IMG/VR virus record: IMGVR_UViG_3300035661_000005 | From: a virus | Taxonomy: Duplodnaviria > Caudoviricetes | Strand: one strand, 5' to 3' | Length of the DNA: 64,000 nt | In this document: in pieces, positions 4,419 to 19,847 of the stretch | Layout: every line of letters begins with the position of its first letter | Numbering within the stretch: position 1 is the first letter of the stretch | Program-made: the position numbers and the translations under genes | The notes under the pieces: generated by a model | Told to the model about the DNA's origin: nothing | The model's input: only the letters and a program-made list of their open reading frames with translations | The model's database searches: none

Positions 4419-4450
4419 ACTGATACTGTTCTCGTTCCACAGGTGACTAG

Positions 4451-5344
4451 ATGGGAACCGCGTTTTACAGGGGGCAGCAGCTGGGCCGGGGGGATCTCTC
4501 GATCTACTTCACGAACGCCTCTGGGACACCCTCGGATGCGGCCGAGATCACCTACGCGGTCTTCGACTTCACGACTGGCCAGGAGGTGCTCGTCGGGCCG
4601 AACCGTCGGCAGCCGGTGAGCGCGGCGGTTGGAGAGTACTACGCCTCCATCATCGTCCCGCTCGATGCGAACCTCGGGAGGTACAGGGTCCGTTGGACCT
4701 TCCGCGAGCTTCTCGGTGGGCCGATTCAGCAGGTCGTTCAGGAATTCGAAGTCATCGACAAGGGCACGACGCAGGTCATTACGACCTACTCCACGTGCGT
4801 CCTCGATCTCGTGGGGCGTCTACGCACGCTCCTCCGGGACAACAACCCCGACCGTAACTACCACTTCAGGCCACCGACGCACGAGGAGACGATCAACCAG
4901 TTCAACCGGGTCTTCGGCTACATCTGGGAAGATGCCGAGCTGGTCCAGTTCCTGGAGGCGGCGCTCAATACGATCGAGCTGTCTCCGCCCCTAACGCCCA
5001 TGGGTTCCTTGGAAGTCCTGTGTCAGCGGTGGTCGAGCTGGAGGACTGTCCTCCTGACGGGGGCCATGATCCACGCCCTCCAGGCGCTCCGTATCAACTG
5101 GATCGCGGATGAATTCGACTACAGCATCGGCGGTGTTAGCCTGACGATCGACAAGTCGTCCAAATACGAGGGCGCCCTCTCCACGAGCGTCGACCAGTTC
5201 GACAAGCAGCTCGAAAAGGCGAAGGCCACCGTCAACATCGTCCGCGGCCTCCAGCAGCCCCGGTACGGCGTCGGTATCCGCTCCGCGTTCGGCCCCTACG
5301 TCGGCCGCGGCGTGCTCAGCCCCCGTAAATTCGTGGGGTTGTAA
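4451..5344 (+). CDS. Head-tail adaptor (neck) protein with N-terminal Ig-like domain
   Basis: LRTLLRD...WEDAELVQFLEAAL...EFDYSIGGVSLTIDKS pattern typical of adaptor proteins; lies upstream of closure, terminator and sheath genes. Confidence 0.65.
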   Translation: MGTAFYRGQQLGRGDLSIYFTNASGTPSDAAEITYAVFDFTTGQEVLVGPNRRQPVSAAVGEYYASIIVPLDANLGRYRVRWTFRELLGGPIQQVVQEFEVIDKGTTQVITTYSTCVLDLVGRLRTLLRDNNPDRNYHFRPPTHEETINQFNRVFGYIWEDAELVQFLEAALNTIELSPPLTPMGSLEVLCQRWSSWRTVLLTGAMIHALQALRINWIADEFDYSIGGVSLTIDKSSKYEGALSTSVDQFDKQLEKAKATVNIVRGLQQPRYGVGIRSAFGPYVGRGVLSPRKFVGL

Positions 5345-5394
5345 CCTCAGCATTGAGGTAAAAGCTGAGAGCGTGTCCCCTCTCGGTGTAGGGG

Positions 5395-5784
5395 ATGGTT
5401 GGGATGAGCGTCACCCAGCTGATTCGGAGGATGCTACGGGAGGATCGTCCTCCTCAGCGGAACAAGCTCGTTCTACACCCTTGCCTATGTGGCTTCCGTG
5501 CCGAGTCCAGGCAGCGGATGCTGACGCACCGGCGTCAGTGCATGGATTGGAAGTACCGGAAGGACCCGGTCGGCCTGGCGAATTACCGCCGGTGGAAGAC
5601 GGAGAACCAGGGAAACCCGAACGCCCTCACGTGCCCCCTCTGTAAGCGGAAGACGAACCATCACGCCTTGACGTGTCCGGAGGGATTTGAGGAGAAGGAA
5701 CGTTGGGCCGCTGTGGAGCGGAATGGGATCCCCAAGCACCTCTTTAAGACCATCCTCCGCGAATTGGCCAAGCGGTACGTCTGA
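5395..5784 (+). CDS. Small accessory protein with two putative CCHC zinc fingers
   Basis: CLCG...H..QC and CPLC...H...C motifs; less GC3-biased than neighbours. Confidence 0.55.
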   Translation: MVGMSVTQLIRRMLREDRPPQRNKLVLHPCLCGFRAESRQRMLTHRRQCMDWKYRKDPVGLANYRRWKTENQGNPNALTCPLCKRKTNHHALTCPEGFEEKERWAAVERNGIPKHLFKTILRELAKRYV

Positions 5785-5831
5785 AAGTTCTTATGCGATC
5801 ATCCGAGTGAGGCACACATTCGGAGAACGCC

Positions 5832-6746
5832 ATGCCTGTTGCACCCGCCAAAATCGTTCATCGCTACCTTGCTGCTCGGTCGGCCCACGACGATGCCCGG
5901 TTCCAGCCGCCCAAGTGGCTCGTGGCGGCGGTCGACTCGGGGGAGATCCAGGTCGAGTGCCTCAACGTCTGGAAGTACGTCACCGACCAGCTCGGCAATC
6001 ACTTCGACTACGGCGCCGCCGTCAAGTACTGGCGGAACAAGTGCCTCAAGATGGGGTACGCGATCCCCGAGAAGTTCATCGAGGGTGGTGGTGGCGAGGG
6101 TGCCGCTGGGCCGTGGCGGGTCAAGACCGGCGACCAGATCGAGGAGTGGGTGAAGGCCACCCTCAAGTCGCATGGCCTCCTCGCGGACGTGGGTCGTTCG
6201 GTCCACGACTGGCAGATGGAGATCGGCAGCCTGGAGCGTGAGGTCGCCGAGGCCCAGGGTCGCGTGGACAAGCACCTGGCCGCGATGGCGGGTGGCAAGG
6301 TCAATGCCCAGCGCAAGAAGTGGCTGGACAGCGCCCAGGCGGACCTCATCAGGTTCAGCAAGCAGCTGAGCGAGGCCAACGACGAGATGCAGAAGCTCGT
6401 CAAGACGGCGGCCCGCTATGAGAAGCACAAGAGCCCGACGCTGGAATTCGAGAAGGAGTTCCAGTTCATGATGCTCGTGGCGTCCAAGGACTTCGACAAG
6501 AAGCAGATCCTGGAAGCCGTCTCGAAGGCGATCGAACGCTTCGAGACGGGCATGGAGATCCCGGACGCGGGACCGGGGGACGACTCCGCGAGGTACCAGG
6601 GCTACAAGGCGGCGGGCATCGGCGACCTCCTCGACAAGGCCATCAACTGGCTGAAGAGCGCCTGGGCGCTCTTCACCGGCTGGATCGCGGACCTCGCGGG
6701 GACGACCAAAAAGCTCGACAAGATGCTCAGCGAGGCCGGCGCCTAA
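5832..6746 (+). CDS. Hypothetical coiled-coil protein
   Basis: 304 aa, strong GC3 bias, SD GGAGA, central heptad-rich helix. Confidence 0.7.
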   Translation: MPVAPAKIVHRYLAARSAHDDARFQPPKWLVAAVDSGEIQVECLNVWKYVTDQLGNHFDYGAAVKYWRNKCLKMGYAIPEKFIEGGGGEGAAGPWRVKTGDQIEEWVKATLKSHGLLADVGRSVHDWQMEIGSLEREVAEAQGRVDKHLAAMAGGKVNAQRKKWLDSAQADLIRFSKQLSEANDEMQKLVKTAARYEKHKSPTLEFEKEFQFMMLVASKDFDKKQILEAVSKAIERFETGMEIPDAGPGDDSARYQGYKAAGIGDLLDKAINWLKSAWALFTGWIADLAGTTKKLDKMLSEAGA

Positions 6747-7078
6747 TCCTCCGGATCCAGGCCGACGTCCAACCGAGCGAGTCCCTTACGGACTCGCTCG
6801 GTTGCCTTCTTGGCCTCCCTCACGGCTTCGTGAGAGCCCACCTCGGCCGCCAAGCGCCGGCCTTCCGAGCCCTTCACGACCGCCGAGTCGAAATAACAGA
6901 TCAGGTCGTCCACGGTTGCGAAGAAAATGAACCTGGTGTAGTCCGGTGGGAGCCCCGACCGGCTTGTGGTGATGTGGGGTTCCCACCCGTACTGGGTGGA
7001 GACCCGATTGAGGGCGTGGAGCCCTCCTTCCGTAGCCCGATCCAGGGCTACGCGCAGATCAGTGACGTTGACGGGCAT
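6743..7078 (-). CDS. Hypothetical protein, divergent from 7141
   Basis: On the minus strand AGGAGG lies just upstream of the ATG; stop overlaps the stop of 5832..6746 (convergent). Confidence 0.6.
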   Translation of the reverse strand: MPVNVTDLRVALDRATEGGLHALNRVSTQYGWEPHITTSRSGLPPDYTRFIFFATVDDLICYFDSAVVKGSEGRRLAAEVGSHEAVREAKKATERVRKGLARLDVGLDPED

Positions 7079-7140
7079 AGACGAAACCTCCTGCGTGGAC
7101 TACAAGGCCACCGTAGGTGGGATCAACCAGGGAGATCCAA

Positions 7141-7461
7141 ATGAGCGACCAGACGAAGAAGCTGTCCCCGAGCGACCCCGTGACCCAGGAAGACCGGGAG
7201 AAGCTCAACAAGTTGGCCGAGGCGCAGTACGACATCGCCCTCCAGGTGTACGAGCTGGAGCAGCGCAAGGTGCAGCTCCTCGTCGCCGGGCGTCAGGTCG
7301 ACGGCGAGCGCTCGAAGCTCTTCGAGAAGATTCTCATGGATCGCGGGCTTCCGCCGAACGTGGCCGTCGAGATCGATGCCACCTCGGGGCTCATCAAGAT
7401 CCTACGCTCGGGTCAGCCGCCCGCTCCGATGGCGCAGCCGCCCGCTCCGCCATCGGAGTGA
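7141..7461 (+). CDS. Small coiled-coil protein with Pro-rich tail
   Basis: ATG at 7141 after GGGAGA; 106 aa. Confidence 0.7.
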   Translation: MSDQTKKLSPSDPVTQEDREKLNKLAEAQYDIALQVYELEQRKVQLLVAGRQVDGERSKLFEKILMDRGLPPNVAVEIDATSGLIKILRSGQPPAPMAQPPAPPSE

Positions 7462-7475
7462 CGGTTTCTCTTGTC

Positions 7476-7504
7476 CGCGGCTACCTTTTGAGGGGGTAGC
7501 CGCG
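7476..7504 (+). promoter_or_regulatory. 10-bp hairpin occluding the RBS of the head-closure gene
   Basis: CGCGGCTACC (7476-7485) / GGTAGCCGCG (7495-7504); ATG at 7505. Confidence 0.6.
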
Positions 7505-8866
7505 ATGCCGTACGCCACGAATCGGGACCGTTCGACGCCGACGCTGGAGACCACGAAGACCCCGTGGCCTGTGGCGCCGCTCAACGTGTTCCTGACTTCT
7601 GGTTGGGCACCCGGGGCCTATGACATCCGGTGGGACGACCCGTCGGTCCTTGCCCTCAACAGCCGATGGATGATCACCGGCGTCAACATCTACAGAAGCT
7701 TCGACTCGGAATTCGGACCCTTTCACAGGGTCACGGACATCCCGGTCGGGTCAACGTTCTGGCGTGATCGGACGGACATCGAGCTGATCGAGGACGAATT
7801 GGTCACGCCAGACCGTTGGGTTTACTTCGGCCCGCCGGCTAACGAGTCTCGCTTCCCGCAGTACGTGTTCCAAACGCAGTACGATCCGATCGTGAAGTCG
7901 GGCTCCCAGGGGATCCCAGCCAACACGCCGGATGACGTCTTCGTCTGGATCAACAACCAGCGGGCTCGTGTCCATGCTGTCCGGGGTCAGGCGGGGGAGA
8001 TCACGCTCGATCCGCGTGAATTCCCGAACGTGGCGCTCCAGAACTTCGATCCCGCCGTGGTCCCAGCAGCCCCCGATGCCGATGTGCGGGTGACGTACCG
8101 CCGGCTCAAGTCCCTTCTAAGGACCGACCTCGCCCAGCGGGTCTTCTACCGTATCTGCACGGTCGCCCTACCATCTGGGTGCGACCTCTCGTGCATCACC
8201 CCGAACGACTTCGTCGAGACGCCCCTGGAGCATGCGGCATCGACCTCGAATTACGAGATCGAGAAGCTGGACTACATGTGGCGGGAGAGCATCCGTCGGA
8301 ACCGCTGGATCCTAGAGCAGGGTGGCGAGCGGGTTCGGGTGTTCCTCCAGAAGCATGTGGGTCTCACGTGTGTCTGCATTCCGGACGGGTTGCACAAGCA
8401 GCCGCAGGCGGACTGCCTACGTTGCTTCGGGACGGGCGTCCTCGGGGGTTACGAGGGGCCGTACGAGACGATCATCGCCCCGGACGATGCTGAGCGGCGG
8501 ATCGCGCAGAAGGACATCGGGCGTACAGTCGAGCACACCTACGAGGTCTGGACCGGGCCGATCCCACTGCTCTCCATGCGGGACTTCCTGGTGAAGATCA
8601 ACGGGGAGCGCTACTCGATCGGTCCCGTCCGGATGCCTACGAACAGGGGCATGGTGCTCCAGCAGCACTTCAACATCGGGCATCTCGACGAGAAGGACAT
8701 CCGGTACAAGGTGCCGATGGACGACCCGGTTCGGTTCGCGGCGACGCAGTTCGCTCCGGCTCCGCCCGAGGAGGGTGGTCCAACGCCGATCACGGACAAG
8801 GACAACATCCCGGATGAGCGTGAGCTGCGCGGCCGTACGCTTGCCTGGGAGAACATCGAGTACTGA
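7505..8866 (+). CDS. Head-closure/neck protein with N-terminal fibronectin-III-like domain
   Basis: N-terminal PVAPLNV...YDIRWDDP...GVNIYRS (FN3-like); C-terminal GERVRVFLQK..GLTCVC...DCLRCFGTGVLGGY Cys motif as in head-closure proteins of large myoviruses. Confidence 0.65.
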   Translation: MPYATNRDRSTPTLETTKTPWPVAPLNVFLTSGWAPGAYDIRWDDPSVLALNSRWMITGVNIYRSFDSEFGPFHRVTDIPVGSTFWRDRTDIELIEDELVTPDRWVYFGPPANESRFPQYVFQTQYDPIVKSGSQGIPANTPDDVFVWINNQRARVHAVRGQAGEITLDPREFPNVALQNFDPAVVPAAPDADVRVTYRRLKSLLRTDLAQRVFYRICTVALPSGCDLSCITPNDFVETPLEHAASTSNYEIEKLDYMWRESIRRNRWILEQGGERVRVFLQKHVGLTCVCIPDGLHKQPQADCLRCFGTGVLGGYEGPYETIIAPDDAERRIAQKDIGRTVEHTYEVWTGPIPLLSMRDFLVKINGERYSIGPVRMPTNRGMVLQQHFNIGHLDEKDIRYKVPMDDPVRFAATQFAPAPPEEGGPTPITDKDNIPDERELRGRTLAWENIEY

Positions 8867-9393
8867 TGGGCAAGCTCGGCAACTTCTCCGCTAAGCAGAT
8901 GCCGTCGCTGGTCCTTTCGACCACCTACGGCAAGCCGCTCCTGCGTGGGGCCGTCTCCGACCTGGTGGATCCCCACCGGATCATGGCCCGCTTCCAGCGG
9001 ACTCTCCTGAACCGGCTCAAGAAGTTCATCCTTCAGGCGACCTTCTCGGACGCGGCGAAGCGCCGGCTTTCCAAGGCGATCAAGGTCAAGCTCAAGGGCA
9101 ACAGCATCCAGGTCACGACGAGGGACCCGGCCTGGCGTCCCCTCGTGGAGGGGCAGAAGCCTGGGCAGATGCGGTGGCTCATTCGGGCGCGGGCACCGAT
9201 CCCGATCGTGACGGATACGGGGAAGGTCATTTTCCGTTCCGCCACGGCCAAATCGATGAAGAACGGGAGGTGGTACCACCCGGGGCGCCCTCGTCAGAAC
9301 ATCATCGAGAAGGCCAAGGAGGAGGCTCGCAAGATCCTCCGAGAGCGCGTAAAGTCCGAGTTTGCCAAACAGCTCAGGGACTCGTTGAGATGA
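8866..9393 (+). CDS. Neck protein, HK97 gp10/Ne1-like
   Basis: Basic 175-aa protein with LVEGQKPG...PIPIVT..GKVIFRSAT...WYHPG pattern; follows the closure gene. Confidence 0.5.
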   Translation: MGKLGNFSAKQMPSLVLSTTYGKPLLRGAVSDLVDPHRIMARFQRTLLNRLKKFILQATFSDAAKRRLSKAIKVKLKGNSIQVTTRDPAWRPLVEGQKPGQMRWLIRARAPIPIVTDTGKVIFRSATAKSMKNGRWYHPGRPRQNIIEKAKEEARKILRERVKSEFAKQLRDSLR

Positions 9394-9947
9394 TGATTGG
9401 CGACGTCACCGTGGTGGGGATCGACACGTCCCCCGTAGTCCTAGAAGACATCGGCATGGACGTGCCGCATGCACAGGCCGTCACGATCCCTGCGGACAAG
9501 GCGACCATGTCGAAAGATCTCTGGCGGGCGATCGGGCAGCGGAGGCTCTTTCAGCTACATACGGGTCCGATCCCGACCCGACCTCAGGTGGCTCGGGTCT
9601 CCCCGGACGCCGACCGGGTCAAGCAGCTAGAGGCAGAGAACCAGCAGCTCCATGAGCGGGTCCGGCAGCTAGAGGCCCAGGTAGCGGACAGCTCCAAGCT
9701 CGACCAGATCCTCGCCGCCATCCAGCAGGGGGGTGTCACGGTCGCGGCGGCCCCTGGGCGCCTCGTCCCGTCCGCCAAAGAGGCTTTGCCGGGCGTTGTG
9801 GAGGTGGACGTGCCTGTGTTCATCCCATCCGTGAAATCGGCCGACGTGTCCGAGACGCGGCTAGGGGTGCAGGCCGAGTCCTCCGACGGGGCATCCCTGG
9901 GGTCGGCGGCTGAGGCGCTGCGGAAGATGCGGCGGGCTGGCCGATAA
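9390..9947 (+). CDS. Hypothetical protein with central coiled coil
   Basis: ATGA-coupled start at 9390 (track ORF 9174..9947 over-extended); RVKQLEAENQQLHERVRQLEAQV heptads. Confidence 0.65.
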   Translation: MMIGDVTVVGIDTSPVVLEDIGMDVPHAQAVTIPADKATMSKDLWRAIGQRRLFQLHTGPIPTRPQVARVSPDADRVKQLEAENQQLHERVRQLEAQVADSSKLDQILAAIQQGGVTVAAAPGRLVPSAKEALPGVVEVDVPVFIPSVKSADVSETRLGVQAESSDGASLGSAAEALRKMRRAGR

Positions 9948-9981
9948 TCCTCTTCGATTTTCACGCCCGTAGGAGAATCCC

Positions 9982-10236
9982 ATGCACCCCCGTCAAGCCT
10001 CACTCCTCACCGAAGCCAGGACCCTCGTCGAGAAGACCGCCGCCAAGACCAGGGGCGGGGCGCCGATGCTCTACAGGTACACGGATCCGGACAACGGGAT
10101 GGACTTCTACCTCCCGGAGAAGAGGACCACGGTGAAGAGCCCCTGGTCGGGCAAGAGCTTCTCCGCCAAGCCCGAGAAGGACAGCCTCTCGGACGTCGGC
10201 AAGGAGCTGAAGGACGACGCTAAGAGGGCGAAGTGA
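9982..10236 (+). CDS. Small hypothetical protein (possibly Cys-less zinc-ribbon-like)
   Basis: SD AGGAGA; DPDNG and SPWSG turns spaced like a ribbon; contains RQAS and KTAA. Confidence 0.65.
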   Translation: MHPRQASLLTEARTLVEKTAAKTRGGAPMLYRYTDPDNGMDFYLPEKRTTVKSPWSGKSFSAKPEKDSLSDVGKELKDDAKRAK

Positions 10237-10952
10237 TGGACGAGACGACCCGCACTCTTTGGGTCGACCCTATCCATCACGATCCGTTGACGGATGGGCC
10301 GCCCTATCTCCCCGGACACCTGGGCGGGAAGGTGGCACGCATGGTCAACGCATCCGACCGGGCGCTGGCTCGTCAGGTTCTAAAGCAGGCCGAGGCGATG
10401 ATCGGCATGGACGTCGCCGTCGCCTTCCAGCACTGCCTGTCTGAGTACGGTGGTGCGCCCTCCTCGGAGATGGCCGTGCTTCTGGCCTGCATCCGGGCCG
10501 AGGTGATGATCCACCAGACGCACCACTGGCAGGCGCGTGGGCAGACGCAGTACGGGGATCACCTCCTGTTCGAGCGCGTCTACGACACGGTCAATGGTTT
10601 CGTCGACAAGATCGCTGAGAAGGCGGTCAGTACGGGGCACCTCGTCAACGTCGAGCCCCGGCTGCAGATGAGCCAGATGTCGGCGTTCATCAAGATCTTC
10701 TACTCCGATGCTCCGGTCAGCCCCGGGCCGGAGGAGATGGTCCTGCTCTCGTTGCGGACGCTGTCGAAGTCCGCGCTCGTCCTCGTCTACGCCTACAAAT
10801 CGCTCGAGGCGAAGGGGCAGCTCCTCCTCGGGACGGACAACCTCCTTCAGGGCGTGGCAGACGAGCAGGAGGGTCTGGTGTACCTCCTCAAGCAGCGGAG
10901 CATGGTTCGGATGGCCTCCGTTCCCCCCAACGGGGCGGCCTGGAAGCGGTGA
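10233..10952 (+). CDS. Dps/ferritin-like protein
   Basis: HQTHHWQARGQTQYGDHLLFERVYDTVNGFVDKIAEK matches the Dps ferroxidase signature HW..G..F..LH..FE..Y.......D..AER. Confidence 0.8.
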   Translation: MMDETTRTLWVDPIHHDPLTDGPPYLPGHLGGKVARMVNASDRALARQVLKQAEAMIGMDVAVAFQHCLSEYGGAPSSEMAVLLACIRAEVMIHQTHHWQARGQTQYGDHLLFERVYDTVNGFVDKIAEKAVSTGHLVNVEPRLQMSQMSAFIKIFYSDAPVSPGPEEMVLLSLRTLSKSALVLVYAYKSLEAKGQLLLGTDNLLQGVADEQEGLVYLLKQRSMVRMASVPPNGAAWKR

Positions 10953-10984
10953 CCAGGGGAACACCCAGATCAGAGAGGTATCGA

Positions 10985-11995
10985 ATGAGCAAGGAATCCA
11001 AGCCTGGCGTCGGCATCGACATCGGCACGATGAACATCGTCTCCGCCCGCATGACGAAGGCGGGTCAGATCGAGACGAAGCGCATCCGTGATGCCTTCAT
11101 CGATGTCGACGCCGAGGCGAAGAAGACGCTTCGGCTTTCGAAGGTCGACTACGTCGAGAAGGACGGCAAGTTGATCGTCCTGGGCGACTCGGCCCTGACG
11201 ATGGCGAACCTCTTCAAACAGGAGGCCCGTCGGCCCCTGAGCAAGGGCGTCATCGCACCCGGGGAGATCGACGCCCAGGAGATCCTGAGCCTCCTGATCT
11301 TCAACGTCCTCGGGGAGCCCATCGTCCAGGGGGAGCACTGCTACTACAGCGTGCCGGCCTCGCCGATCGACGACCCGGACCAGGACGTGATCTACCACAC
11401 GGAGGTCTTCCGCAAGATCATCTCCGAGCACGGGTACACGCCCTCTCCGATGAACGAGGCGATGGCGATCATCTACTCCCAGTGCGCGGAGGAGCAGTTC
11501 AGCGGGCTCGCCGTGAGCTTCGGTTCCGGCATGTGCAACGTCGCCCTGGCCTACCAGACGGTCAAAGGGCTCGACTTCAGCCTCGCCCGGGGTGGGGACT
11601 GGGTGGACCGCGGCGCGGCCAAGGCAATGGGAAGCACGGCGGCCCGCATGTGCTCCATCAAGGAGAAGGGTGTCGACCTCCTCAAGCCGAAGAGCCGTGA
11701 GGAGGAGGCCCTGGCCCTCTACATCCGGAACCTGATCCGCTACTGCCTGGAAAACATCGCCGTGCAGTTCCGGCGGGCGCAAGCGGCGATCGATCTTCCG
11801 GACAAGATCCCCTTCGTGGTCTCGGGTGGGACGACCAAGGCGATCAACTTCGAGTCCATCTTCCGGGACGAATTCGAGTCCATCAACAAGAAGGGCTTCC
11901 CGATCCCGATCTCGGACGTCCGCATCGCGAAGGACCCTATGACGGCGGTGGCTGAGGGCCTCTTGGTCCTCGCGGCGGAGGACCACGCGGGTTGA
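10985..11995 (+). CDS. Actin-fold ATPase (MreB/ParM/MamK-like superfamily)
   Basis: Phosphate-1 IDIGTMN, connect-1 NEAMA, phosphate-2 VSFGSGMCN, adenosine VVSGGTT, connect-2 DPMTAVAEG; ATG 10985 has SD GAGGT. Confidence 0.85.
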   Translation: MSKESKPGVGIDIGTMNIVSARMTKAGQIETKRIRDAFIDVDAEAKKTLRLSKVDYVEKDGKLIVLGDSALTMANLFKQEARRPLSKGVIAPGEIDAQEILSLLIFNVLGEPIVQGEHCYYSVPASPIDDPDQDVIYHTEVFRKIISEHGYTPSPMNEAMAIIYSQCAEEQFSGLAVSFGSGMCNVALAYQTVKGLDFSLARGGDWVDRGAAKAMGSTAARMCSIKEKGVDLLKPKSREEEALALYIRNLIRYCLENIAVQFRRAQAAIDLPDKIPFVVSGGTTKAINFESIFRDEFESINKKGFPIPISDVRIAKDPMTAVAEGLLVLAAEDHAG

Positions 11996-12026
11996 TCCGC
12001 GCAGGCCACTGCCTGAAAGGGAAGTC

Positions 12027-12131
12027 ATGTCCAACCGTATCGCTGCCACCGATCCCGCCTGGAGGAAGACCGCATCCGGTGGTTTCGCAGCCTACTCCAC
12101 CCAGGCGAGCATGGGTGCGAACATCGCCTGA
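12027..12131 (+). CDS. 34-aa micro-protein MSNRIAATDPAWRKTASGGFAAYSTQASMGANIA (not in ORF track)
   Basis: SD-like AAAGGGAAG before ATG; fills the gap between the actin and terminator genes. Confidence 0.6.
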   Translation: MSNRIAATDPAWRKTASGGFAAYSTQASMGANIA

Positions 12132-12147
12132 CCCATCGAGGGGGAAT

Positions 12148-13308
12148 ATGTACTACTACCTGACGAGCGCGCTGAAGCGGCGGGTGGCCCTGGAGCTGAA
12201 GGACAGCTTCGGGCGTCACCCGATCTACAAGAAGATCGTAGATTATATCCAAAATAAGTATTCGTTTTCGGAGCGTCCGCAGTTTGGCATCGTGATCAAG
12301 GGCTCCAGCGCCAACAAGGTGGCCCTCTCCGGTGACAACTTCATCGGGACGATCGAGAGTCACGTGATTCTCGCGAACGTAGGCGAGCCCGCCTACCCGA
12401 TCGAGTGGGTTCGTGAAGACCTCAACGCGGTCAGGGAGAACGGCAACATCTTCCCTCTCGTACCGGGGATCTACTACATCGAGATCCTCGACGCGCCGGA
12501 CAATCCGACGGACCCAGGGCACTTCATCGTCGATCCCCTACTCACGGTCACGGACGAGGCCATCCTGCAGTTCCTATCGGGGATCGAGCAGGAGGCGCAG
12601 CTACAGATGCCCCCGGCCAAGGGCACCTTGCGCCTATGGCTCAACAAGCGACAGCTCCTCAAGGAGGGTGCGGACTACACGGTCGATTATACGACCGGGG
12701 CTCTACGGATCAACGTCCGTTTCAGCCCGAACGACACCCTCACGGCGGATTACCGCTACCCGGCGCCAAGCGTCGGCCCCGTCGAATTCTGGTGGAACGT
12801 CTCGGACCACAAGACCCTCCCGGGGGTCATCCTCGCCTTCGGCAAACGGGCCAAGGCGGGGGACAAGGTTGCGATCGTCGTCTATCAGGACCGGGTCGAG
12901 GCTGCTCGGGCGTTCGGTGGCAAGTTCGAGGTGAACCTCGACCTCGATGTCATTTCGCAAGACCCCACCCAGATGGAGGAGATTGCCGACCTGGTGATCA
13001 TGTACCTCTGGGGTGAGCGCAAGGCGGACCTGGAGACGGAGGGCATCGAGATTGTGGACATCTCGATGGGCGGGGAAGCCGAGGAGGTTTACGACGAGAC
13101 GGGGGATACCTACTTCTACAACGCCTCGATCTCGTTGCAGCTACGGTCGGATTGGGAGATCCACATCCCGCTGCCACTGACCTTCTCGAAGGTCACGCAG
13201 GAGACGGTGGAGGGGAAGCCCGGTGTGAAGGCGGTCACGACCGGCCTGTTCCACCTGACGCACGCCATCTTCCCGAGCCGAAACAACGACTACGAACACA
13301 TCAAATGA
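12148..13308 (+). CDS. Tail terminator/completion protein with inserted beta module
   Basis: ATG 12148 after GAGGGGG; C-terminal EVNLDLDVISQD...EELADL-type pattern; insert EGADYTVDYTTG...LTADYRY; two genes upstream of sheath. Confidence 0.55.
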   Translation: MYYYLTSALKRRVALELKDSFGRHPIYKKIVDYIQNKYSFSERPQFGIVIKGSSANKVALSGDNFIGTIESHVILANVGEPAYPIEWVREDLNAVRENGNIFPLVPGIYYIEILDAPDNPTDPGHFIVDPLLTVTDEAILQFLSGIEQEAQLQMPPAKGTLRLWLNKRQLLKEGADYTVDYTTGALRINVRFSPNDTLTADYRYPAPSVGPVEFWWNVSDHKTLPGVILAFGKRAKAGDKVAIVVYQDRVEAARAFGGKFEVNLDLDVISQDPTQMEEIADLVIMYLWGERKADLETEGIEIVDISMGGEAEEVYDETGDTYFYNASISLQLRSDWEIHIPLPLTFSKVTQETVEGKPGVKAVTTGLFHLTHAIFPSRNNDYEHIK

Positions 13309-13321
13309 AGGTGGGGTGGCC

Positions 13322-13762
13322 ATGCCCAAGTACGTCTTTGCGTGTCAGAACGAGGCTTGCAGCCTGCGCTTCGAGCGTAGCCTCAAGATGGGGGAGCACC
13401 CGACCCACGTGTGCCCGGGGTGCCACGAGGAGGCCCCTCGGGTCTTGGACGGGGAGGCCTTCCACTTCGCCTTCCAGCAGAGCCAGACGGCGGCAGCGGC
13501 GAACACGGGCGTCCACAAGGCCGATTACCCCACGGCGGACCAGGTGGTGGGCCGGGACGCGGAGAGCCGGTGGGCCTCCTACGGCGAGCGAAACAAGGTA
13601 AAGGCGGCTGCCCGTGAGCAGGGCGGGACGAGGGCCCTCATTCGACACCAGGGCAAGGACTTCATCGACTACGAGCCGATGTCGGACGCGGGCCTTTCGG
13701 CGCGGAAGAAGCTGTTCGCCAAGGCGATCGAAGTCTCGAAGGCGACGAAAGAGGCTCGATAA
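13322..13762 (+). CDS. FmdB-family zinc-ribbon protein
   Basis: MPKYVFACQNEAC..RFE.......HPTHVCPGC matches MPxYxYxCxxC...CPxC. Confidence 0.75.
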   Translation: MPKYVFACQNEACSLRFERSLKMGEHPTHVCPGCHEEAPRVLDGEAFHFAFQQSQTAAAANTGVHKADYPTADQVVGRDAESRWASYGERNKVKAAAREQGGTRALIRHQGKDFIDYEPMSDAGLSARKKLFAKAIEVSKATKEAR

Positions 13763-13764
13763 TC

Positions 13765-13851
13765 CACTGATGCCGGTCTGCCTAATAGAAGGCCCGGCCT
13801 CCGGGACCAGATGAAGATGGGGATCGTATCCGAAGCTCCGCCCCGGCAGTG
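13765..13851 (+). promoter_or_regulatory. Structured leader element A upstream of the sheath gene
   Basis: CACTG(AT)GCCGG 13765-13776 pairs with CCGGCAGTG 13843-13851; encloses AGATGAAGATGGGGATC...TCCGCCC shared with element B. Confidence 0.45.
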
Positions 13852-13911
13852 AGGGGCACCCTTAGATCCAGATGTGATGAAGAACGCTGACGTCCCCACC
13901 AGGAGTCTCGG

Positions 13912-16900
13912 ATGTCCATCGGCCCCTTCGCCTCCTACGTCCCGCCCGGCATCTACACCCGGACGCTGACCGAATCCAACGTCGCGCAGCTCGTTGCCGG
14001 CCTACGCATCCCCGTGATCATCGGGGTCGGGCAGGAGCAGCTCGACCAGCTCAACGTGGAGATGGTCCGCGGAAGCAGTTCGACGGTCGACCAACAGATC
14101 TTCAACGAGGATCCCTCGCTCGCCTGGGTCGTGGACTCGACCAACCCGGCGAACCTGGTTCTCGGTCCGCAGGATGGTACGCGCCTGCAGCTGCGGGTGC
14201 GCAACTACCCGATCGTCGATGGTCAGGGCTTCGGCCGTGTGACCAACGACATCCGGACGGTGACCGTCACGGTGAACGGCACGCCGACGGCGGTGGCCCA
14301 GGTGAACGGCCAGAAGGGCCTGATCACCTTGCAGGTGCCGCCGCAGCCGACCGACATCGTGCGGGTCACCTACTACTTCCACCGCGGCGACACCCAGTTC
14401 ACGGATGACGTCTCGGCGCAGGTGACGCCCGACTCGGCCATTCTCGTGTCTCCTGGTTACGGCCCCTACGTCTTCACGGCTGGGTCGAACGACACCCTGA
14501 AGCTCAGGGTGAACGGCACCGCCTACACGGTGGTCTTCTCGGCCGGTGCGCTGACGGCGACCACGGTCAAGGCGCAGATCGACGCTCTGTCGATCGCGAA
14601 CCTGACGACCTCGGTCTACGTGGACCCGATCGGTCAGGAGCACATCCGGCTGCTCACGACCCAGGAGCTTCAGATCCTGGACGGTTCGGCGAACGGTCCG
14701 CTCGGCTGGACCAACTACACGAAGACCGCCCGCAACGTGGACTTCGCGGTCTTCAACCGTCCGATCACGGATGGTGGCGGCTCGGGCCTGACGACCACGG
14801 ACACCGCGAAGGTGGTCGTGAAGGTCAACAACGTCCAGGTCATCCCGGCGGCGGTCAACGGCCAGAATGGTCTCGTGACCCTCACGCTGGCACCGCCCCC
14901 CGGTGCCAGCGTGAGGGTCACGTACTGGGCGAACACGTGGCAGGACACGTACGACTATCTGCCGAACACCCTGGTGACCCAGGTCACCCAGTGCGGTATC
15001 GCCCCGGGACGGTCCGACTACATCCAGGGCGCCGACTTCGTGGTCTCGAACCCGACGGCGGACACCAGCATCATCCACTGGGGTACGAGCATGGCGGTCA
15101 GCGCCGTCTCGACCACGGCGGGTGGGACGCCCTTCCATGACTCGCAGATCGTCGGGACGCTGGTCGACGACCAGATGTTCCTCGGTGAGTGCGAGCGGGT
15201 GGTCAACACGGCGGTGAACCCGGCGACCATCTCCGGGACGGACTTCATCCTCCCCGAGATCCCGACGCTCGGCAACGGCCGCAACACGCCGCTCGGTACC
15301 ACGGACTTCGCCTCGGTCACGAACAGCCGTCAGGACGTCATCTCGAACCGTCCGGACCTCGTCGTGGTCTACGTCGGGCGCAACCTCCAGGACGCGCTCA
15401 ACCGTCCGGTCGCCAAGGTCGACTACGTGGATGGGGCCAACCGCCTGATCCGGCTGACGTCCTCGGTCCCGGCCGACTGGAAGGCCTTCGCGACCTTCTA
15501 CTACAACCGGATCGTCGACGACACCTACCTCTTCACCAACAAGGTGTCGGGGCCGGTCGGCACCGGGCAGTACGAGGTGCTCGCGGTCGCGACCCAGGAG
15601 CAGCTCTACCAGGTCAACTTCACGAAGGTGGGCCTACCCTTCGGTGGTTCGCCGGTTCCGCAGATCGTGCAGTGGCCGCGTGGGGTCGAGAACATCCCCG
15701 ACGCCTTCCACGCGGGCTCGGGCACGCCGGTCAGTGAGACGGTCCTCGTGACCTTCCGCCAGTCGGCGGCGGGCAACGCGGCCTACACGATCAAGGGCGC
15801 GGAGAGCTACGGGCTCTACAACCCCACCTCGGCGACTTGGGTCACCCTGCTGCAGGGGCTGCCCATCTCGACGTCCCTCAATGCGGCGGCTCCGGCCTCC
15901 CTCGTCAGCGGCCACGTGGCGGTCATCCAGCCGCCGGACGTGAACGCGGGGAAGATCAACGTCGCGGTCGGCACCGAGACGCTGAACCTGGAGATCGACG
16001 GGGTCTCGATCGCGGTGACCCTGACGACGGGCTACCGGACTCCGACCCAGATCGTCAACGAGATCAACTCGGCGATCGACCTCGACCCGGCCTTCAGCGG
16101 TACGGCGCCGAACAACCTGGCGGGCTACAGCCAAATCGGCGGATCTTCGGGCGATGTCTTCTTCCACGTGAAGTCGTACACGACGCCTAGCGCGCTCCCG
16201 GGTGGGTTCGACTCGGCGGCGAAGGTCAAGATCGCCCAGGGGACGGCGGAGACGACCCTCGGCTTCAAGACCTTCCAGACGGCGACCGGGACCTCGGGCG
16301 CCATCTGCAAGCCGGCGACGCTCCTCGGCTCGGTGGCCGGGCCGTACGTGATCACGACGGGCGTCAACGACACCCTCAAGGTGCGGGTCGACGGGGTGGA
16401 TTACACCGTGGCCCTCCCGGGTGGTGCCTCGGTGACCACGACGGCGGTCGTCACGGCGATCAACGCGGTGATCCCGAGCTTCTCCTCGGTTGGCACCTTG
16501 GGGAACCTGAACCACCTGCGGCTCACCAGCCCGACGAACACGACGGTCTCTTCGATCGTCATCCTCGACGGGACGGCCAACGCGATCCTCGGGTTCGTCC
16601 AGAACGAGCAGGCGAGCCAGGTGCGGGTCACGGCGCAGGAGATCGTCAACGCGCTCAACGCCACGGCGGGCTTCCTCGCAGCGGGCATCGCGTACGTCAC
16701 CTCGGTCGAGGGTCTCAACTACGTCACGATCGAGTCGATCACGACGGGTGCGGCGACGTCCAGCGTCGGGTTCGGCTCCTCGGCCAACTCGGCCTTCAAC
16801 ACCGGGACCGGCCTGAACATCACGCCGGGCACGGACGGGGACATCGGCGAGGACCCGCGCACGGTCTTCGACGTCCGTTCGACGAACCCGCTCGGCTCGG

Positions 16901-18198
16901 CCGGTACGGGTACGCCGGGTCAGACCTACACGGATGCCCGCACGGGCCTCCGCTTCACGGTCCTGCCCTCGACCACGACGTACCAGGCGGGCAAGTCGTT
17001 CGGCTTGGTGGTCTCGACGACCTTCGCGGTCAACCCCGCGGTGCCCTTCTACGCGATCCCCGGTGTGGAGACGACGGTCTCCAACACGGTCGGGGTCGTG
17101 CCGGGTGATGTGGGTCAGATCCAGACGTTCCACCCGGGTGGGGCGGAGCCGAAGGTCGGGGACTTCTACTACATCTCGTACAAGTACCAGAAGCAGGACT
17201 TCTCGACCCGGATCTTCCGGCAGCTCAAGACGATCGAGGCCAACTTCGGCGTCACCTCGCCGGCGAACCGTGTCACCCTGGCGGCCTACCTGGCGATCCT
17301 CAACGGGGCGCTCCTGGTCGGCATCAAGCAGGTGCGCAAGGTCCCGAACACGAATCAGGCGTCGGACGCGGACTTCATCGCCGCGATCCAGGCCCTATCG
17401 ACGCCGATGCCGGGCAACGTGAAGCCTGACATCCTCGTGCCCCTGGCGACCTCGACGTCGGTCTACGCGGCCCTCACGAGCCACGTAGAAACGATGAGCC
17501 TCATCCAGAACCAGGCGGAGCGGATGGGCTTCATCGGGTTTGCCTCGGGGACGACGCCCTCGAACGCGGCGACGATCGCAGCGAGCCTCAGCTCGAACCG
17601 CATCGTGGCCCTCTACCCGGACTCGGTGGTCGTCACTCTGACCGATGAGCTGGGTCAGAGTTTCGACTCCCTCGTGGACGGCACCTTCTTCGCGGCGGCG
17701 GTGGCCGGCGCGGCGGTGTCCCCCTCGGTGGACGTGGCGACGCCGTACACCCGGCGCCGGATCCAGGGCTTCACGAGCATCCCGCGGATCCTCGATCCGG
17801 TCGAGGCCAACCAGACGGCCGTGAAGGGCGTCACCCTGATCGAGGATCTGGACCCGGTGATCCGGATCCGGCAGGGCCTGACGACCAACATGCAGAGCCC
17901 GCTGACGCGCCTGCCGACGGTCACCCAGATCGCCGACTACGTGCAGCAGCAGAGCCGTCAGACGCTCGACTCCTTCGTCGGGACGAAGTTCCTCGCGACG
18001 CGGACGCAGGAGGTCAACGTCTCGATGACGAGCCTCTTCAAGCAGATGGTCCAGGCGGAGATCGTCGGGGGCTTCACGGGGATCTCGTCCACGGTCGACC
18101 CGGACGACCCCACGGTCATGCGGTTCGAGGCGTACTACCAGCCGATCTTCCCGCTGCTCTACATCGTGATGTCCTTCAACCTGAGAGCAAGTGTCTAG
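13912..18198 (+). CDS. Contractile tail sheath protein with multiple inserted domains (1428 aa)
   Basis: N-terminal YVPPGIYTRT; C-terminal sheath core TPYTRRRIQGF...GVTLIE...IRIRQGLTT...TVTQIADYV...FVGTK...YYQPIFPLLYIVMSFNL. Confidence 0.9.
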   Translation: MSIGPFASYVPPGIYTRTLTESNVAQLVAGLRIPVIIGVGQEQLDQLNVEMVRGSSSTVDQQIFNEDPSLAWVVDSTNPANLVLGPQDGTRLQLRVRNYPIVDGQGFGRVTNDIRTVTVTVNGTPTAVAQVNGQKGLITLQVPPQPTDIVRVTYYFHRGDTQFTDDVSAQVTPDSAILVSPGYGPYVFTAGSNDTLKLRVNGTAYTVVFSAGALTATTVKAQIDALSIANLTTSVYVDPIGQEHIRLLTTQELQILDGSANGPLGWTNYTKTARNVDFAVFNRPITDGGGSGLTTTDTAKVVVKVNNVQVIPAAVNGQNGLVTLTLAPPPGASVRVTYWANTWQDTYDYLPNTLVTQVTQCGIAPGRSDYIQGADFVVSNPTADTSIIHWGTSMAVSAVSTTAGGTPFHDSQIVGTLVDDQMFLGECERVVNTAVNPATISGTDFILPEIPTLGNGRNTPLGTTDFASVTNSRQDVISNRPDLVVVYVGRNLQDALNRPVAKVDYVDGANRLIRLTSSVPADWKAFATFYYNRIVDDTYLFTNKVSGPVGTGQYEVLAVATQEQLYQVNFTKVGLPFGGSPVPQIVQWPRGVENIPDAFHAGSGTPVSETVLVTFRQSAAGNAAYTIKGAESYGLYNPTSATWVTLLQGLPISTSLNAAAPASLVSGHVAVIQPPDVNAGKINVAVGTETLNLEIDGVSIAVTLTTGYRTPTQIVNEINSAIDLDPAFSGTAPNNLAGYSQIGGSSGDVFFHVKSYTTPSALPGGFDSAAKVKIAQGTAETTLGFKTFQTATGTSGAICKPATLLGSVAGPYVITTGVNDTLKVRVDGVDYTVALPGGASVTTTAVVTAINAVIPSFSSVGTLGNLNHLRLTSPTNTTVSSIVILDGTANAILGFVQNEQASQVRVTAQEIVNALNATAGFLAAGIAYVTSVEGLNYVTIESITTGAATSSVGFGSSANSAFNTGTGLNITPGTDGDIGEDPRTVFDVRSTNPLGSAGTGTPGQTYTDARTGLRFTVLPSTTTYQAGKSFGLVVSTTFAVNPAVPFYAIPGVETTVSNTVGVVPGDVGQIQTFHPGGAEPKVGDFYYISYKYQKQDFSTRIFRQLKTIEANFGVTSPANRVTLAAYLAILNGALLVGIKQVRKVPNTNQASDADFIAAIQALSTPMPGNVKPDILVPLATSTSVYAALTSHVETMSLIQNQAERMGFIGFASGTTPSNAATIAASLSSNRIVALYPDSVVVTLTDELGQSFDSLVDGTFFAAAVAGAAVSPSVDVATPYTRRRIQGFTSIPRILDPVEANQTAVKGVTLIEDLDPVIRIRQGLTTNMQSPLTRLPTVTQIADYVQQQSRQTLDSFVGTKFLATRTQEVNVSMTSLFKQMVQAEIVGGFTGISSTVDPDDPTVMRFEAYYQPIFPLLYIVMSFNLRASV

Positions 18199-18223
18199 GG
18201 TCCAGCACAATCTAAAGAAAAGG

Positions 18224-18252
18224 TTGACAGCGTGGTAATCCGAGCGTAGGCT
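18224..18252 (+). promoter_or_regulatory. Sigma70-type promoter TTGACA-17-TAGGCT, probably giving a leaderless transcript
   Basis: TTGACA 18224-18229, 17-nt spacer, TAGGCT 18247-18252, A-rich tract upstream; GTG start 7 nt after the -10 box; no SD. Confidence 0.7.
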
Positions 18253-18259
18253 CGGAACC

Positions 18260-19654
18260 GTGGAAGAAACCGTCACCTGTCGCATCTGCGGACATTCGGC
18301 CGTGACCCTGGCTCGCCATCTCAAGGCGGTGCATAGGGTCACGGCCGACGCATATCGGGCGCAGTACCCAGACGCCCGTATCCGATCCGAAGCTTGTGAG
18401 GCGAACCGGCGAGCCGCTGTCACACGAGCCCACGCCGAGAAGCCACGGGCAGGGCAGAAGAAGGTTGTCGTCTGCCCGTGCGGGACCCCTCACGAGGTGG
18501 GGTTGACCTTCGCCTCGAAAGACCTTCGGTGCCCGTCGTGCAAGGCCAGAGACGAGGCGGCTGCTTGGCATGGAAAGGTCGAAGGAGAGGAGTACGTAAC
18601 GTGTCGTCTCTGCGGGCATCGCGCAGAGAGTCTGGTGAGTCACATACGATCCAAGCACCCAGAGCACGAAGGCCAGTACGAAGGGGACGTCATCTCCCGC
18701 AGGTCTGCGATCAGGGATAAGGCAACCCTCAAGGGCCGCACCCTCTCCGCCGAGACCCGAGCGAAGATGTCCGCCAGTGCGGGGTGGAACCGAGGTCTGA
18801 CGAAGGAGATCGATGAAAGGGTGGCGCACGCAGCGGCGGCCATGAAGGGTCGTGTCCCGTGGTCGAAGGGACACACGAAGGCGGATCACCCAAGTCTTCG
18901 GAGCACTTCGGATAAGCTATCCAAGATCACGGGTGCGGCACGTTCTTGGTCTAACGGCCTTGCGGCAGACCTGTCGAACGTAGACTTCACGCCATACCTC
19001 GATGAGACGGGGGCGGTGGATCGCAAGACGATGGCGGAAGAACTTGGGCTATCGGAGCCCACGATCACCAAGTACATGGAAGCGGCAGGTCTCCGTCTTT
19101 CGACCAGGTACGTGGACGCCAGGGCCGAAAGGCAAACGATCCGCTTGGAAAGAGCGGATCTAGAGAAGCACACGCTCGGGAACGGCAAGGTTGTTATCGC
19201 TCAAGCGATGGCGGCACTCGGGCGCGACTTCAAGGTCATCAAGCGTGAGTGCGAACGCCACGGTCTGGAGACATTCAGCCACCGCCTCCGTCAAACTCTC
19301 TGCCTCGATGCAGTGTCGAGGGCTCTTGGTGGGGTTGCGTACGAGCAAGAGTGGAGTCCTCGCCGTTTCACCAACCCATCGACCGGCCATCGCTTCCGTT
19401 TCGATGGCTTCTTCCCCTCCCACAACCTCATCGTCGAGTTCCACGGCTACCAGCACTACGTCTTTCCGAGCGTCTACATCAAGCGTGACGAGCTGTACTT
19501 CGCGCTCCAGGAGCGGGACCGGATCAAGGAGAACATGATCCATGCTGATCCCGTCCTTCGCTACTTCCTCGTACGTGAAGACGAGCCCTACGCGGACCCG
19601 GCCTACCTTCGGGGTCGTCTTATGGACGAGGGCGTCCTCGACCCGGGGAAATGA
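18260..19654 (+). CDS. Putative free-standing homing endonuclease: two C2H2 zinc fingers, NUMOD3-like repeats, HTH, C-terminal PD-(D/E)XK/Vsr-like nuclease
   Basis: VTCRICG...LARHLKAVH and VTCRLCG...SHIRSKH; KGRTLSAETRAKMS, VPWSKG; MAEELGLSEPTITKYM; RFDGFF...LIVEFHGYQHY. Confidence 0.75.
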   Translation: MEETVTCRICGHSAVTLARHLKAVHRVTADAYRAQYPDARIRSEACEANRRAAVTRAHAEKPRAGQKKVVVCPCGTPHEVGLTFASKDLRCPSCKARDEAAAWHGKVEGEEYVTCRLCGHRAESLVSHIRSKHPEHEGQYEGDVISRRSAIRDKATLKGRTLSAETRAKMSASAGWNRGLTKEIDERVAHAAAAMKGRVPWSKGHTKADHPSLRSTSDKLSKITGAARSWSNGLAADLSNVDFTPYLDETGAVDRKTMAEELGLSEPTITKYMEAAGLRLSTRYVDARAERQTIRLERADLEKHTLGNGKVVIAQAMAALGRDFKVIKRECERHGLETFSHRLRQTLCLDAVSRALGGVAYEQEWSPRRFTNPSTGHRFRFDGFFPSHNLIVEFHGYQHYVFPSVYIKRDELYFALQERDRIKENMIHADPVLRYFLVREDEPYADPAYLRGRLMDEGVLDPGK

Positions 19655-19776
19655 TGCTCGCGCGGCGCCTTGTCAGAAAGTTGGGTTGCCGGTCGTCCCT
19701 TCGGCGTAGGGTGAGCTTGGAGCGAATGCCGTTGGGTCTACATCTCACCATCGCAGACTGAGGGGTTGTGATAGAA

Positions 19777-19808
19777 GGGCGCCCGCTGGCTTCGGTCAGC
19801 GGGCGTTC
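19777..19808 (+). terminator. Stable UUCG hairpin, possible terminator or processing stem
   Basis: GGGCGCCCGCTGGC-TTCG-GTCAGCGGGCGTTC; lacks a clear U-tract. Confidence 0.45.
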
Positions 19809-19847
19809 CCGATTCTGGTGTAATCCTCTTGTGCCCTCGCAGGAGAC

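Follow-up and report, generated by a model that had tools for sequence, protein, structure and literature searches.

The window analysed here, a 64,000-nucleotide stretch of viral DNA, is part of a huge myovirus-like phage with relatives of 200–530 kb, and at positions 10985–11995 it carries the gene for a 336-residue protein (P0001) whose membership of the volactin family we regard as practically certain. We read P0001, with a probability of roughly 0.6, as a phage-specific volactin-family actin-fold NTPase that would form filaments; it would then be a virus-encoded cytoskeletal protein that differs from the known phage actins both in its actin family and in its genomic setting. To our knowledge, phage cytoskeletons comprise the PhuZ tubulins and a small number of actin-like proteins that handle DNA, AlpC among them. 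Full-text literature searches returned volactin in archaeal papers only, and actin in huge or jumbo phages in none.

The gene and its membership of the volactin family

The gene lies on the + strand, as do all real genes of the window. It opens with an ATG at 10985 and closes with a TGA at 11993–11995, and a Shine-Dalgarno-like GAGAGG at 10973–10978 has the ATG 6 nt downstream. Its GC3 is 0.90; the real window genes have values of 0.76–0.93, and overlapping spurious frames 0.4–0.65. The initial annotation claimed all five actin-fold motifs for this reading frame, and each can be located in it: phosphate-1 as GIDIGTMN (residues 10–17, 11012–11035), connect-1 as MNEAMAII (residues 156–163, 11450–11473), phosphate-2 as SFGSGMCN (residues 178–185, 11516–11539), adenosine as VSGGTTKA (residues 279–286, 11819–11842) and connect-2 as DPMTAVAEG (residues 317–325, 11933–11959), along with an ARGGDWVD motif at 11585–11608. 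In a profile alignment E158 of connect-1 corresponds to E143 of MamK, and S178 of phosphate-2 to D161. The gene is intact, with every nucleotide-site residue that the volactin family conserves. P0001 consists of the actin core only, and carries no substrate-binding or membrane-anchor extension; inspection of its short termini revealed no evident cleavage or targeting peptide.

Family membership rests on a Pfam match of P0001 to Volactin (PF25216) with an E-value of 1.8e-71 and 241.7 bits, covering profile positions 3–321 of 321, where the curated cut-off is 35 bits. Beyond Volactin no Pfam family matched at E-values up to 1, including MreB_Mbl (PF06723), HSP70, FtsA and PilM, and searches of PHROGs, NCBIfam and, with the single sequence, the PDB sequences gave zero matches. 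In all, 1395 homologues of P0001 were found, and these results lie well outside what chance would yield. The named haloarchaeal chromosomal members are 37–40% identical to P0001; one of them, from Haloarcula rara, aligns with 38% identity over 325 residues and scores 451 bits against the Volactin profile, while members from Planctomycetota, Terriglobia and Patescibacteria score 268–332 bits. With its 242 bits, P0001 is thus a distant yet unambiguous member of the family. Among 14 control genomes, Haloferax volcanii was the only one above the Volactin cut-off. Phage and cellular members share 46 positions that are conserved in at least 90% of each set, with all nucleotide-site motifs included: among them are D12, G14, T15, E158, S178, G180, G182 and N185, as well as G204, D205, W206, D208, K226, E227, G281, G282, T283 and G325. 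P0001 and the haloarchaeal chromosomal members have in common the motifs S-F-G-x-G-M-x-N, ARGGDW[IV]D, KE and SGGT.

The founding member, volactin of Haloferax volcanii (VolA, HVO_2015), is an actin homologue that forms dynamic filaments in vivo; it is encoded by a chromosomal gene and takes part in the change of cell shape from rod to disk (PMC10869688). P0001 falls into the same Pfam family over its full length and has the S-F-G-x-G phosphate-2, GGDW[IV]D and KE motifs in common with it, the motifs being compared through haloarchaeal members and not through the sequence of VolA itself. Set against these likenesses, P0001 is encoded by a huge phage, sits in a clade of its own on the family tree and scores lower against the profile (242 versus about 450 bits), and its gene stands inside a run of virion genes, whereas VolA is the product of a chromosomal shape-change gene.

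The initial annotation also singled out the phosphate-2 motif, where SFGSGMCN replaces the usual D-x-G-G-G-T. The replacement is real, but it characterises the whole family rather than this gene alone: of 269 homologues that were retrieved, nearly all have S-[FYM]-G-[SAG]-G, and the haloarchaeal sequence reads ISFGAGMTN. By the standard of the family the nucleotide site counts as intact, since the Ser-type motif is conserved throughout. A dead enzyme was considered as an explanation of the serine and rejected, given that serine is family-wide and includes the haloarchaeal chromosomal members. In MamK and ParM the phosphate-2 aspartate is reportedly needed for hydrolysis, the Asp-to-Ala mutants (D161A and D170A, respectively) polymerising without hydrolysing; because this aspartate is a serine in the volactin family, its nucleotide chemistry may differ from that of MamK and ParM. 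The filaments of VolA, from a family with serine at this position, turn over quickly in vivo (PMC10869688).

The AlphaFold2 model of P0001, built from an alignment of 85 sequences, has a mean pLDDT of 95.9 and a pTM of 0.93, and in this model P0001 has an actin/ASKHA fold with two RNaseH-like lobes and all five motifs in place. The top Foldseek ranks are Mbl/MreB, MamK and BeeR (E-values of 1e-14 to 1e-15, TM-scores of 0.65–0.72, 16–19% identity). An exhaustive structural aligner gave Z-scores of 27.3 for BeeR, 25.6 for MreB, 24.6 for crenactin, 23.8 for BiP, 23.0 for FtsA and 22.9 for actin, and Hsp70 nucleotide-binding domains (NBDs), FtsA and PilM compare with the model at Z-scores of 21–24. 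As an Hsp70 NBD reaches 23.8 against the 27.3 of BeeR, the fold alone cannot part filament formers from Hsp70 domains. The family profile does part them: searched against all PDB sequences, it reached MamK (2e-15), BeeR (2e-9), MreB (8e-7) and FtsA (4e-6), with EutJ and actins following weakly, and Hsp70 was absent among the best 60 matches. A placement among non-filament ASKHA kinases or chaperones, which the initial annotation had named as an outcome that would speak against a filament, is therefore not what the sequence indicates. Co-folding of three copies of P0001 (residues 5–334), run without controls, gave a score of 0.00, which speaks neither in favour of polymerisation nor against it.

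Of the solved relatives, MamK and MreB/Mbl are the closest by profile, the level at which their remote homology to P0001 shows, and among the best by fold, and share with P0001 a four-subdomain actin core without extra domains; they differ from it in being only 16–21% identical, in the serine that stands for the phosphate-2 aspartate, followed by Met-x for Thr-Thr, and in the very long branch that leads to MreB. BeeR, a bacterial actin that makes a three-stranded tube (PDB 8r2n; PMC11929497), is the best structural match (Z-score of 27.3 over 304 residues, rmsd 3.5) and the second-best by profile (E-value of 2e-9). Its identity to P0001 is nonetheless 18%, its family and context are different, and a monomer fold gives no filament geometry. 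Based on membership of the family founded by VolA, and on the nearest solved relatives, all of which are filament formers, we suggest that P0001 probably polymerises.

A conserved place among virion genes

The actin gene belongs to a co-oriented run from 7117 to 13308 in which genes overlap or are separated by gaps of at most about 35 nt, except for 152 nt 3' of the actin. The run begins with a small coiled-coil protein (7117–7461, with an earlier start call at 7141), whose place is kept in 57 of 82 loci, and continues with a 453-residue virion-type protein (7505–8866) that resembles head-completion or neck proteins. A 185-residue protein with a leucine-zipper-like coiled coil (9390–9947) keeps its place in 57 of 82 loci with 36% identity; both coiled-coil reading frames, which the initial annotation put forward as candidate adaptors of the actin, evolve fast, at 36–43% identity in the actin-found loci. 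Immediately 5' of the actin is a Dps/ferritin-like protein (10233–10952; weak PHROG match), which is present in 64 of 82 loci in one set and 70 of 80 in the other. Immediately 3' is a tail-terminator-like protein (12148–13308), and beyond it come a zinc-ribbon protein (13316–13762; Zn_ribbon_8, below the Pfam cut-off) and a contractile tail sheath of 1428 residues (13912–18198). The sheath was recognised by fold search only: the model of its C-terminal 419 residues matches the sheaths of phi812, pyocin, AFP and T4 gp18 (Foldseek E-values down to 9e-13), while sequence searches of the PDB, Pfam and PHROGs did not reveal it as a sheath. The initial annotation described the actin as embedded among neck genes. 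The sheath verifies this description in part; the neck-like protein and the terminator-like protein, the latter with look-alikes annotated SP10_terminator and Phage_tail_terminator_9, are leads from ESM Atlas look-alikes. Since the run is co-oriented and tightly packed, co-transcription of the actin with neck and tail genes is likely.

Several features of the surrounding DNA may be recorded here. A 34-codon reading frame (12028–12132, MSNRIAATDPAW...) fills the 152 nt that separate the actin from the terminator-like gene; it is not conserved across the clade, as the gap in relatives has a median of just 58 nt. An inverted repeat at 6770–6804, with perfect 15-nt arms and a loop of 5 nt, lies 3' of the gene at 5832–6746 and 5' of the run that starts at 7117, and may be a terminator or regulatory hairpin at an operon boundary. 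Downstream of the sheath, 18260–19654 encodes a 464-residue protein whose N-terminus matches a ROS/MucR zinc finger and whose C-terminal region is HNH- or homing-endonuclease-like; it may be a mobile insert, as it lies between sheath and helicase and occurs in only 24 of 82 related loci. The helicase itself, beyond the sheath gene (19848–24275), is a UvrD-type SF1 enzyme of 1475 residues with an intein-like insert (Intein_splicing, residues 626–935). At the other end of the window, 1180–1566 and 1569–1979 are adjacent paralogues that match Pfam Gp80 (podophage GP4 fibre I protein) with E-values of 6e-40 and 4e-36. No tRNA was found in the 64 kb of the window.

The phage is known from metagenomes. 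At least 95 relatives of the actin are present in IMG/VR, many of them on contigs of 200–529 kb, some of which have terminal repeats and were judged complete. The nearest deposited records, and the only two that tblastn reached, come from huge phages (485 and 595 kb), both uncultured, so that no cultured phage in the searched collection has the actin gene, and a megablast of 9000–20000 against deposited phages gave zero matches. A search of sequencing runs placed the window DNA in microbial-mat and sediment metagenomes, and no RNA run was among the runs listed with it.

In 82 loci found by means of the actin, the same one-strand gene order recurs: coiled-coil protein, neck-like protein, the gene at 8866–9393, coiled-coil protein, the gene at 9982–10236, Dps-like protein, actin, terminator-like protein, zinc ribbon and sheath. 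Because these loci had been picked by actin peptides, the synteny was retested with loci anchored on the terminator-like protein, collected with an alignment-based scan (a single-protein scan reached 4 loci), which left 71 with enough upstream DNA. The actin is directly upstream in all 71; it is whole in 70, with a median gap of 58 nt, and split in one (L216). The actin is also the best-conserved whole protein of the block. In the terminator-anchored loci its median identity to the window is 68%, compared with 60% for the whole sheath, 60% for the terminator-like protein, 59% for the neck-like protein, 50% for the zinc ribbon, 37% for the Dps-like protein and 35–40% for the coiled-coil proteins; across both sets of loci the actin has a median of 68–69%, as against 58–60% for terminator, whole sheath and neck-like protein, and its identity exceeds that of the terminator in 59 of 70 loci. 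By a cruder measure, six exact 8-mers, the actin matched 106 IMG/VR stretches and the terminator 6. High conservation alone nonetheless fails to single out the actin, since the C-terminal core of the sheath, at about 69% identity, is on a par with it.

The arrangement is old as well as common. In deep phage lineages whose neighbouring proteins are only 30–45% identical, the neck-like protein, actin, terminator and sheath are still in order, although the Dps-like gene is undetectable in deep lineages that keep actin and terminator together. In five genomes of 417–529 kb the actin is single-copy. A second huge-phage lineage departs from this pattern: LR756511.1 (595 kb) has a volactin-family gene (locus L253, 9995–11014; 29% identity, 228 bits) with none of the window's neighbours around it, and with a DnaG-like primase about 4 kb downstream on the other strand. 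As this context is different and unrecognisable, the neck/tail position is not universal for phage volactins.

About twenty representatives of the family, roughly 470–800 residues long, are volactins that contain an intein, in some cases together with a LAGLIDADG domain. The junctions fall after S178, G180 and M183, in phosphate-2, and after R202, that is between R202 and G203 in the ARGGDW motif. Inteins are typically found where constraint is strongest, in proteins indispensable to the element that hosts them; with all four sites in either the phosphate-2 loop or the GGDW motif (residues 178–204), they fit an important nucleotide-dependent function. Examples are the homologues P0023, P0121, P0128, P0167 and P0169 and the locus L216, whose actin (3869–5956) is split at residue 202/204 by roughly 1.09 kb of inserted sequence.

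Phylogeny and cellular relatives

Phylogeny against MreB, among the checks proposed in the initial annotation, was carried out as a maximum-likelihood tree of 67 rows, rooted on MreB and including 62 volactin rows. A starred branch (99) sets the volactin rows apart from MreB. The window actin belongs to a 28-row clade made up entirely of phages (97, also starred), which is nested in a larger phage group (91), and the cellular members form a separate group (92); a few deep phage rows branch apart. Because the MreB branch is very long, the tree does not fix the root inside the family or the direction of transfer. A recent capture from a host was rejected as the source of the phage gene: its GC3 equals that of its neighbours, the phage clade is deep and the synteny ancient.

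Scanning one genome per prokaryotic species gave 488 relatives of volactin. Among the best 80 of these are numerous Planctomycetota, with contigs as long as 9 Mb, as well as Terriglobia on contigs of megabase size, Patescibacteria and further groups, together with the haloarchaeal genera Haloarcula, Natronomonas, Halorarius and Halapricum. Such loci (L087–L162) indicate that volactin is common on Planctomycetota chromosomes and occurs also in Terriglobia and Patescibacteria, so that the family is far from restricted to haloarchaea. Phage neighbours were seen at four cellular loci only (L083, L084, L085 and L086), short MAG contigs assigned to Actinomycetota, Methylobacter, KSB1 and Legionellales that carry the phage block of neck, actin, terminator and sheath; as these are probably mis-binned DNA of huge phages, they give no evidence of the host.

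Other relatives show variations on the basic architecture. On a JGI contig of 247 kb (L254, 4860–8676) a plain volactin of 336 residues is followed by an 891-residue paralogue with a weak ParB-HTH N-terminus, in a cellular context with McsB/McsA-like and OMP decarboxylase neighbours. Tandem volactins are represented by P0124 and P0139, and a fusion to a Wzz/BY-kinase module by P0174.

Possible roles in the phage life cycle

The initial annotation proposed an actin-based filament for the trafficking of virions or DNA. The filament part of this proposal draws on the actin fold and on nearest profile relatives that are filament formers, although by fold Hsp70 NBDs are nearly as close. In the mechanism that we envisage, P0001 would bind ATP or GTP and polymerise into dynamic cytoplasmic filaments, and going by the gene order it would be made late, together with virion parts. 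The filament could then organise a late step in space: it might bring together or transport filled heads and tails that are to be joined, or position the assembling particles, and would in this respect do with actin what the PhuZ tubulin spindle does in phiKZ-like phages. We can only speculate here: the position of the gene makes a role in late assembly or trafficking a tentative suggestion, and that the whole clade of 200–530 kb phages runs an actin cytoskeleton of its own, with volactin-type filaments organising head–tail joining or particle movement, is a somewhat more doubtful one.

The fixed place between neck-like and tail-terminator-like genes would also suit an actin-fold ATPase that does not polymerise and serves instead as an assembly chaperone, or as a scaffold on which neck and tail are joined. 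There are precedents for such a use of the fold: FtsA and PilM are ASKHA membrane scaffolds, and the Hsp70 homologue of closteroviruses builds the virion tail. The structural matches to Hsp70 NBDs, FtsA and PilM (Z-scores of 21–24) and the missing phosphate-2 aspartate point the same way. However, the profile searches reach filament-forming families only, with no Hsp70 in the best 60 matches; HSP70, FtsA and PilM gave no Pfam match at E-values up to 1; the 336-residue core has neither a substrate-binding nor a membrane-anchor extension; and VolA, the founding member of the family, polymerises (PMC10869688). We consider a chaperone or scaffold unlikely on this evidence. About as unlikely, in our view, is an actin that moves or anchors phage genomes or replication factories, in the manner of ParM, of AlpC from prophage CGP3 or of haloarchaeal salactin. 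The characterised phage and plasmid actins all act on DNA (PMC4446434; for salactin, as it is cited in PMC10869688), the usual upstream neighbour of the actin in our loci is a Dps-like gene of DNA-binding type, and in one cellular relative the volactin is joined to a weak ParB-HTH domain. Yet there is no iteron or centromere-like repeat array within 6500–14000, and the adjacent genes have no recognisable DNA-binding adaptor domain, though a novel adaptor would escape such a search. Unlike the early operon alpAC (PMC4446434), the actin gene is, moreover, part of a structural run and not of one for early functions or replication, and the Dps-like gene is undetectable in the deep lineages in which actin and terminator remain together.

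Huge phages are known to package proteins that are needed early in infection, and the location of the actin gene among virion genes would be in keeping with a protein that is produced late, enters the particle or is fixed to it close to the neck, and reaches the next cell with it, where it would polymerise or manipulate the host early on. The termini of P0001 carry no evident cleavage or targeting peptide, and we believe that such a cargo is the least probable of the alternatives considered here. Our preferred reading remains a phage-specific volactin-family NTPase.

The phage systems with which P0001 is best compared differ from it in instructive ways. AlpC is an early gene of the Corynebacterium prophage CGP3, has the DNA-binding adaptor AlpA next to it and serves DNA replication (PMC4446434). 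Both AlpC and P0001 are phage-borne actin-like proteins used by the virus itself, but AlpAC has its adaptor, and its promoter contains a binding site, while the volactin gene is located in a structural run without a recognisable adaptor or repeats. PhuZ is likewise a cytoskeletal polymer of a very large phage, and may be a functional analogue in the movement of capsids or the organisation of assembly; its fold is that of tubulin, and that of P0001 is that of actin. None of five genomes from the clade matched Pfam Tubulin, which is compatible with the actin occupying the role of the tubulin, although a divergent tubulin could escape the profile.

A large group of uncultivated huge phages, then, keeps in its block of virion genes an actin from another family, one that has a fixed place, is strongly conserved and single-copy, and is targeted by inteins. 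The presence of volactin on chromosomes of Planctomycetota and Terriglobia, and on contigs of Patescibacteria and other MAGs, bears on how actins have spread among prokaryotes and viruses. If P0001 does polymerise, these phages would organise late infection with an actin of their own, which would widen the range of cytoskeletons built by viruses, and the young volactin family would gain a second, tractable biological setting. A clade-wide volactin cytoskeleton, if true, would give lytic phages their first actin-based counterpart of the PhuZ spindle, operating with a Ser-type nucleotide site unlike that of classical actins.
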